From: Promethearchaeota archaeon
GTDB lineage: Archaea; Asgardarchaeota; Lokiarchaeia; Sigyniarchaeales; SOKP01
Assembly: GCA_016839705.1 (NCBI GenBank)
Contig: JAEOTR010000044.1
Location: forward strand, 33,874-97,873
Direction of reading: 5' to 3'
Length of the DNA stretch: 64,000 nucleotides
The notes under the pieces were generated by a model, which worked only from the letters and a program-made list of their open reading frames with translations, was not told the DNA's origin and made no database searches. The translations under genes and the position numbers were made by a program. The number at the start of each line of letters is the position of its first letter. The first letter of the stretch is position 1. Shown in pieces: positions 7,681-8,846 of the stretch.

Positions 7681-7752
7681 TCCATACCTGAGCAAGGGTT
7701 TCATCAAATAACTTTCTACGAGAGGCTTTTTTATTTGAGTCATTACTATGGA
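7681..7752 (-). promoter_or_regulatory. Candidate eukaryote-type SECIS element in the 3' UTR of the 7759-8679 gene
   Basis: Minus strand reads UCCAUA GUA AUGA C UCAAAUAA AAAA GCCUCUCGUAGAAAG UUAUUUGA UGA AACCCUUGCUCAGG UAUGGA. Helix I is UCCAUA/UAUGGA, the core is AUGA..UGA, helix II is a perfect 8-bp UCAAAUAA/UUAUUUGA, and unpaired As open the apical loop. Starts 6 nt after the stop codon. Confidence 0.8.
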
Positions 7753-7758
7753 TTTTTT

Positions 7759-8679
7759 TTAGTCACAATCTTCTGCTTGTTGTTTATTAATTTTGATAAA
7801 TGCTTCCTCTTGAAGATTTCGTTGTTTTGATTTGATAGTTCGATTTACTTGACTTAAATGTTTCATGGCATTATTTTTTCCGTTTTTAATATTTTCAATC
7901 AATTCTTCTTTACTAAATCCTCCAGAAATGACAATTGCTGTTTGAAATGATTGGTTAGGTTCCAATGTCTTAAATTCTATTTGTAAAGCAGATAAAACTT
8001 CTCCTGGGTCTTTATATAATGTATTAGAAAGGTTTAAATTATTCTGATTGATTATGAAATCTCTTGTTAAACATGTCTGGTAATTAGTTGATTTAGAGAT
8101 AGGAGAAAATCCACCGTGCAAGCCAGTGTTATCATATTGATAAATTATATCATTTTCTTCGTCATATCCAGATAGATCATTATCAAAACCATCAAGTCCA
8201 TTTATATCAAAATCAAAGACAAAATACATCGAAAAATCTTTCATTGCAAAATCTGAAATATTTTTCATAGTAAAGAAAGTACTAATATAGGGTACTTGTG
8301 GGGGATTAAATATGTCTTTGTAAACACGAACAAACTCCTTCTTTTGTAATGGAACAGATTTTATGATATTTTCCCGTACTAATTTCTTAAGATACTCCGT
8401 TATATTGAAATCCAAGGTAATTCTGCTTATTGCAGTCCCCTTACGAGTATTTACCATATTATATATTGGCGTGGGTTCGATGTTTTTTAATATTACCGGG
8501 ATTGTCCCGATTCCTTTTCCTTCTAGTTTAAAACTGAACCATGGACCAGTTAATTCTTGTTCACTAAGATAAATGAGATATTTTCCCTTATATGTAAGTT
8601 CTTTTATTGAAAATCCCATGACATATCCAGCAGCGTTTCAAGTTGTGAGCACATCGTGCCAATCTACCTTAATTACTAT
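7759..8679 (-). CDS. Candidate selenoprotein of unknown function (UGA at 8638-8640), beta-rich domain, C-terminal ..EDCD
   Basis: The tracked 286-aa ORF (ATG 8619) extends in frame as (I)VIKVDWHDVLTT-UGA-NAAGYV-MGFSIK. GGAGGT SD-like site at 8689-8694. Start is ATA 8679 or GTG 8652. SECIS-like hairpin lies right after the stop. Confidence 0.7.
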
Positions 8680-8846
8680 CTTATTTTAACCTCCTTCAAT
8701 TAACTATAATTCTCCAATTTTTTAATGATTAGTATATCACTACTTTAAGAGAAGGGGAATTTATAAAAAATACTGTATAAATATCAAGAGTAAAATTTAA
8801 GTAAATTTTTGAGTATATTCAAGAACAAATGGAAAATTTATATATA

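Follow-up and report, generated by a model that had tools for sequence, protein, structure and literature searches.

A candidate selenoprotein family of Asgard archaea with a predicted β-supersandwich fold

INTRODUCTION

Five selenoprotein families with lokiSECIS elements have been described in Lokiarchaeia (SPS/SelD, VhuU, VhuD, HdrA and PrxL; Mariotti et al. 2016, PMC4989117). A later Asgard survey, whose search relied solely on homology to known families, records seven (Huang et al. 2024, PMC11227280), and 11 are on record for archaea (PMC13188914). In prokaryotic selenoproteins, the redox motif is usually CxxU or UxxC (PMC13188914). The Asgard survey also describes a hypothetical protein linked to the Sec pathway, MBD3157761.1, whose gene is often found beside secS, efSec or pstK (PMC11227280).

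Here we examine a gene on the minus strand of a 64,000-nt stretch of a Lokiarchaeia genome (contig JAEOTR010000044.1, positions 33,874 to 97,873; the window, whose numbering is used throughout). With the listed Loki and Asgard families it shares (i) an in-frame UGA, (ii) a 3′-UTR SECIS close to the stop codon, with an AUGA/GA core and an A-rich loop ending in G, (iii) the existence of Cys homologues and (iv) an occurrence in three Sec-using clades (Loki, Thor and Sif/Borr). It departs from the type I lokiSECIS pattern in its apical loop, which is 19 nt long with a mini-stem (type II-like) rather than 11 nt, and from these families in its AUA start. Compared with CxxU redox selenoproteins such as the SelW/Rdx-like, AhpD-like and GrdA proteins (PMC13188914), CxxU or CxxC near the N-terminus, in most of the family though not in this gene, and Sec/Cys exchange are common ground, but the predicted fold is a 250-residue β-supersandwich rather than a thioredoxin-like domain, and a distal C-terminal Cys is present in Lokiarchaeia. 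Pfam and NCBIfam searches with 37 members found no homology to SelD, FrhA/VhuU, HdrA, VhuD, Prx-like, AhpF-N or DsbA-like proteins, and the modelled fold differs from theirs. Compared by gene context alone, MBD3157761.1 fits our gene only in Borrarchaeum.

Within the searchable literature, none of the surveys examined from 2016–2026 lists the family (Mariotti 2016, Huang 2024, Sun 2021, Valentin-Alvarado 2024), and the 119-family table of a 2026 review has no entry that could be matched to it (PMC13188914). As judged from comparative sequence evidence, the gene product is almost certainly a selenoprotein of a family that these surveys lack. Its predicted scaffold is new to the selenoprotein lists examined, and its recoding system is the known Loki one.

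RESULTS AND DISCUSSION

The reading frame and its in-frame UGA

Gene callers place the start of this gene at an ATG (8617–8619), which yields a shortened 286-aa 'hypothetical protein'. All of the 120 database homologues listed have the corresponding 281–287-aa form, and the close ones carry names from Promethearchaeota or Lokiarchaeia. The frame is open from 8685 through a TGA (8640–8638) into this ATG and runs to a TAA at 7761–7759; 5′ of the extension, it is closed by a TAA at 8688–8686. A first-pass annotation of this DNA had proposed a selenoprotein of about 300 residues, and its positions for the Shine–Dalgarno (SD) site, the open frame, the TGA, the ATG at 8619, the stop codon and the hairpin all hold. 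The full coding sequence (7759–8679) would specify 306 residues with Sec at codon 14 (8638–8640) and the annotated start as Met21. The supersandwich occupies approximately residues 1–255, followed by linker helices (257–295) and a C-terminal tail.

A homologue was detected in 105 of 151 relatives, and a single TGA lies inside the match in 80 of the 85 same-family genomes with a match. The UGA falls in one column in all 53 same-family orthologues examined, comprising 48 uninterrupted genes and five intron-bearing loci. In a broader alignment of 37 rows, with identity down to 21%, the Sec/Cys column is invariant. The first-pass annotation had anticipated both TGA or Cys at this site and conservation upstream of it. 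Pairwise differences in the 13 codons before the UGA number 4215, 1855 and 7226 at the three codon positions, compared with a flat 6485, 6628 and 6639 in the control, and stop codons occur there in 0 of 45 loci versus 35 of 45 for the region just upstream. Variation is concentrated at third positions and stops are absent: these 13 codons evolve as coding DNA, with three-base periodicity. The locus thus resembles described cases of Asgard Sec recoding in that the UGA column aligns with Cys and conservation of the coding type is found on both sides.

Two features lie nearby in the window. A 2,525-aa membrane protein (62–7639, plus strand) converges on the selenoprotein gene, an arrangement also found at two other same-family loci, and a tRNA gene (24793–24877, minus strand) is the sole Rfam match in the window.

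Translation initiation

A GGAGGT SD site (8689–8694) is located 9 nt 5′ of an AUA codon (8677–8679), one codon before the extension as first annotated. Nearly all same-family orthologues have a GGAGG(T)-type site 7–13 nt before this position, and the codon at −13 is ATA in 42 of 45 of them, with no other Ile codon among those 45. In the alignment, the Cys homologues have ATG at this position. No AUG was found at or near it in the host's taxonomic family, where three in-frame ATGs are internal, 1–3 codons before the UGA. Since the conserved ATA sits behind the SD site and aligns with the Cys-homologue ATG, we infer that translation initiates at AUA 8679–8677 to give the putative 306-aa product. 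One intron-bearing gene has ATT at the start position, a few genera apparently use other near-cognate codons, and other lineages of the protein family start at ATG while retaining the TGA. An SD-anchored census of the host genome indicates that further non-AUG starts exist.

The SECIS element

The SECIS (7679–7754, minus strand) was identified by pattern match, pairing and covariation across orthologues; its hairpin core (7752–7681) begins 6 nt after the stop codon. Helix I pairs 7754–7748 with 7685–7679, the core consists of AUGA (7743–7740) and GA (7702–7701), and helix II is a perfect 8-bp duplex (7738–7731/7711–7704). The apical loop of 19 nt is A-rich, opens with AAAA, closes with G and contains a mini-stem. 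The first-pass description of a eukaryote-type element with an AUGA/GA core, an 8-bp helix II and apical adenines is therefore accurate. Relative to the published lokiSECIS and eSECIS-like description, the AUGA, GA, loop adenines, closing G and nearness to the stop are all found (PMC4989117). The type I geometry of a 9-bp stem and 11-nt loop does not apply, as the loop has 19 nt and a mini-stem, which the type II model accommodates (PMC11227280). An additional conserved 3-bp hairpin (7697–7687) is present in the 3′ arm; this hairpin between core and helix I covaries and is seemingly common to the SelD, Prx-like, VhuD and Thorarchaeia elements. An Rfam scan of the window reported no SECIS.

A strict pattern (AUGA, a perfect 8-bp stem, an A-rich loop ending in G, and GA or AA) matches eight sites in the 3.36-Mb genome, compared with 1, 0, 3, 1 and 2 in five shuffles, an excess over chance. 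Four lie behind SelD, two VhuD and Prx-like genes, one belongs to the selenoprotein gene, one to a second UGA candidate, and two look like chance matches. Across 49 orthologues, 89% of SECIS cells are paired and 14 of 20 pairs show two-sided change, a result reached in 0 of 500 shuffles, a test inflated by the relatedness of the sequences; slid controls gave 27–49%. Helix II is nearly invariant (two of its eight pairs covary), which leaves helix I, the mini-stem and the 3′ hairpin as the main sources of covariation. As the first-pass annotation had envisaged, the element accompanies TGA-containing orthologues (50 of 53 Sec genes) and not Cys forms (0 of 9).

In Thorarchaeia, the AUGA overlaps a TGA stop codon and the pattern is matched in 15 of 19 loci; the four unmatched loci include one Cys form and one that is degenerate. 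Borrarchaeum has no match to the pattern; a conserved hairpin found there does not fit it. Two of four loci from another Loki family have a 5′ arm that begins 42 nt within the coding sequence. In loci L037 and L123, the SECIS 5′ arm, made up of the AUGA and a 9-bp helix, falls within the last 14 codons, and the stop codon is located where the loop ends. The family thereby supplies independent examples of SECIS elements that are type II-like, overlap the stop or begin inside the coding sequence.

Sec machinery of the host

The host genome encodes tRNA-Sec(UCA), SecS, an EFSec-like factor, PSTK and two TGA-containing SelD proteins, as the first-pass reading would require. The scores for tRNA-Sec, EFSec and PSTK are below curated cut-offs; the tRNA has a UCA anticodon and adjoins secS. 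An ARAGORN 'tRNA-SeC' on contig C18 looks spurious. The credible gene, at C87:137410–137545 and the end of C16, has an apparent D-arm insertion and was missed by ARAGORN; efSec is on an overlapping contig. Directly after secS, a 226-aa hypothetical gene (C87:135030–135710) may encode the Sec-pathway-associated protein of the Asgard survey (PMC11227280).

Two other loci in this genome deserve mention. A Prx-like selenoprotein gene (UxxC) with a SECIS, at C13:69500–69950, is frameshifted in the assembly. A second uncatalogued candidate is an ORF of about 159 aa (C73:86790–87320; L277:90–566, plus strand) with adjacent UGA-UGA codons and a perfect type I SECIS. Of 61 Lokiarchaeia genomes, 49 contain homologues, P. 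syntrophicum and L. ossiferum among them, and every homologue among the matches listed has two TGA codons.

Micro-introns beside the Sec codon

The crenarchaeal cbf5 mRNA intron is an example of an archaeal bulge–helix–bulge (BHB) intron. Five orthologues of our gene (L051–L055, from genomes G048, G024, G022, G031 and G030) carry a 28–32-nt insertion one base after the UGA, and each insertion can form a canonical 3-4-3 BHB with an intron-side helix. If each bulge is cleaved behind its second base, as predicted, the joined exons recover the frame, the UGA and the conserved Asn next to it. The gene in the window is uninterrupted. The five intron-bearing orthologues fall in four places within the genus in a quick version of the tree, in which row L116, labelled Cys, is in fact a Sec form, and the intron may thus have been gained or lost more than once. 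The canonical 3-4-3 structure is that of archaeal tRNA introns at 37/38, as catalogued in an Asgard tRNA intron census (bioRxiv 10.64898/2026.10.13.758758), but here the intron is predicted in an Asgard mRNA, one base after the Sec codon.

The exons meet in a sequence similar to the anticodon loop of tRNA-Ser(UGA) when cut at 37/38. An origin of the intron from this tRNA was unsupported: four of the five genomes contain the flanking pattern just once, in the selenoprotein gene (a single base sets the fifth apart), and tRNA-Ser(UGA) was not located in the genome examined for it. A metagenome scan with a loose intron pattern gave matches that look like chance. In Borrarchaeum (L126:7640–7700, L127 and L048), there is possibly a small BHB-like insertion between the SD site and the ATG.

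Distribution and motif variants

A profile search recovered full-length members in Lokiarchaeia, Thorarchaeia and Borrarchaeum. The motif is CxxU in Thorarchaeia, Borrarchaeum and other Loki families, and CxxC in the family of the two cultured Lokiarchaeia, P. syntrophicum (DSAG12_02345) and L. ossiferum (NEF87_004727), both of which have table-11 Cys homologues (WP_147663390.1 and WP_457917780.1). A few members are CxxCxxC variants (P0138, P0142 and P0153). Most of the host's taxonomic family has xxxU, the window's gene having LxxU; as read from the aligned motifs, the first Cys of CxxU is lost in the host's lineage. The first-pass view that no thioredoxin-type motif is present thus applies to the window's gene and fails for the protein family, most of which has CxxU or CxxC. 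Cys forms are found in genomes that still use Sec.

Nearly every member retains at least one partner Cys, one Thorarchaeia member (L113) being without any. Thorarchaeia and Borrarchaeum forms have CxxU and no tail; forms of the host's lineage have the tail Cys, and the first Cys is mostly absent. The tail residue, Cys305 (7765–7767), is penultimate, occupies a nearly invariant column among Lokiarchaeia members and is a candidate resolving cysteine.

All taxonomic families with full-length members have SecS, a pattern across related genomes in which kin are not independent. Among 128 genomes of SecS-lacking families, the search gave one weak domain match, inside a long protein, and five SecS-bearing families returned no full-length member with this profile query. 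Outside the protein family, only the domain core (approximately positions 120–265) recurs, in larger and often secreted proteins, and none of ten such proteins examined has CxxC. Pfam and NCBIfam gave no match for the 37 members and a PDB sequence search nothing significant; the best sub-significant profile match was to TIGR01577 (E 0.0018, one member only).

Predicted fold

An AlphaFold2 model with Cys substituted for Sec has a pLDDT of 93.7. The best fold matches are the N-terminal β-supersandwich and linker helices of GH94, GH15 and GH116 enzymes (Z 18–20, rmsd 2.6–3.4 Å over 216–237 residues, 10–15% identity); mutarotases match less well (Z about 12–13) and no thiol oxidoreductase is among the top matches. 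The predicted structure is all-β in its sandwich, not a thioredoxin fold, and corresponds to a stand-alone GH15/GH94 N-terminal-type domain, in agreement with the glucoamylase-N/mutarotase assignment guessed at first pass. GH15 glucoamylase and glucodextranase (1lf6, 1ulv), GH94 phosphorylases (2cqs, 8bou), GH116 enzymes and cyclic glucan synthase (8rf9) have the supersandwich and linker helices in common with our family, which differs in standing alone and in bearing Sec or Cys on an N-terminal loop. The catalytic (α/α)6 barrel of GH15/GH94 is absent, as the protein ends about 50 residues past the sandwich, and no barrel gene is adjacent in the loci examined. An acidic/aromatic patch (D156, F157, D158, G161, D168 and Q181) is conserved and recurs in the secreted proteins with a homologous domain.

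When the last 12 residues are removed from the model, the pLDDT of residues 11–20 falls from 92 to 67 and strand 11–13 and the bridge are lost, while most other blocks shift by 0–6 points. The Cys305 tail would thus order the Sec loop in the model, which lends indirect in silico support to the earlier suggestion that the penultimate Cys partners Sec. Note that AlphaFold tends to close disulfides.

Proposed mechanism and alternatives

The CxxU motif, the Sec/Cys exchange and the almost constant partner Cys lead us to propose a selenol/thiol redox cycle. Taken jointly, selenoprotein identity and a Sec/Cys mechanism of the thiol–disulfide oxidoreductase type seem to us somewhat better than an even proposition. 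The ribosome would start at AUA behind the strong SD site and UGA14 would be read as Sec through the 3′-UTR SECIS, EFSec and tRNA-Sec. Sec14 on the N-terminal loop would then attack an oxidised substrate that the sandwich binds, and a partner Cys would resolve the selenenylsulfide. In the more widespread form, this role would fall to the first Cys of CxxU; in the host's lineage, to Cys305 folded back onto the loop. No gene for a reductase partner is encoded nearby.

The same selenoprotein could instead use Sec and Cys as ligands, acting as a metal- or selenium-binding carrier or sensor for selenium metabolism, which we consider possible at a distinctly lower probability. Some families have three potential soft ligands in CxxU and the C-terminal Cys, and CxxCxxC variants occur, one of them encoded after a DsrE-like gene, but the host's lineage retains only two potential ligands. 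Full-length members were recovered solely from SecS-bearing families, yet five such families lack one in our query, and the co-occurrence may reflect inheritance, since kin are not independent. Similarly, the selenoprotein gene is one gene from secS in Borrarchaeum but is not near secS, efSec or pstK in the host genome or in the Loki and Thor loci examined. In the Borrarchaeum locus, it is followed by a GcvH-like gene and by secS in convergent orientation, and upstream lies a divergent gene for a NifB-like radical SAM protein; the GcvH and NifB names are assigned by sequence resemblance.

It is improbable that the protein serves as a redox-sensing partner or regulator of the Roadblock–Rab-like GTPase encoded directly upstream on the same strand (8847–9833). 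This adjacency, seen for Sec and Cys forms in 12 examined loci of two Lokiarchaeia families, does not extend to another Loki family, Thorarchaeia or Borrarchaeum, and the selenoprotein gene has its own SD site and is separated by a gap of about 150 nt. A carbohydrate-acting protein, in which Sec would serve as a nucleophile in catalysis or govern the binding of sugars to the supersandwich, is less probable still. The fold is common to GH15/GH94/GH116 N-terminal domains and mutarotases and the acidic/aromatic patch is conserved, but the domain is non-catalytic in the closest matches (Z 18–20, versus 12–13 for mutarotases), the barrel is missing and sugar-pathway neighbours are not conserved.

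Finally, we judge it very unlikely that the gene encodes no selenoprotein but a 286-aa product from Met21 preceded by a regulatory leader peptide ending at the UGA: the AUA-only upstream start, the conservation of Met21 in the host's family and the 281–287-aa form of all 120 listed homologues would suit this, but Cys homologues are translated straight through the Sec site, the upstream extension forms confidently predicted strands of the domain, the SECIS goes with the TGA forms, the TGA is retained in other lineages that have an ATG start, and the BHB introns restore exactly the Sec-containing frame. A role as the missing SBP2 was dropped, as nothing supported it.

Implications

With members in about nine-tenths of genomes from the largest Loki family and in the majority of Thorarchaeia, the family would be one of the most widely distributed selenoproteins of Asgard archaea; every database record examined has it mis-annotated. 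It would add a new fold to selenoprotein chemistry, and it shows that surveys led by homology overlook some of the Asgard selenoproteome.

A wider reading, which we put forward tentatively, is of an Asgard-specific selenoprotein on a new scaffold, with gated expression and with a job in selenium handling or sensing. Up to three gates would operate in one large Loki family: AUA initiation, SECIS-dependent recoding and, in some genomes, BHB splicing by endonuclease, the helix of the mRNA intron being formed by the Sec codon itself. On this reading, the family probably goes back to the ancestor shared by Loki-, Thor- and Sifarchaeia.

The Cys homologues of both cultured Lokiarchaeia make the family testable now, and the intron-bearing alleles offer a direct test case for mRNA splicing by tRNA endonuclease in Asgard archaea. 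As these archaea are the closest microbial relatives of eukaryotes, the family bears on the contents of the eukaryotic ancestor's selenoproteome.
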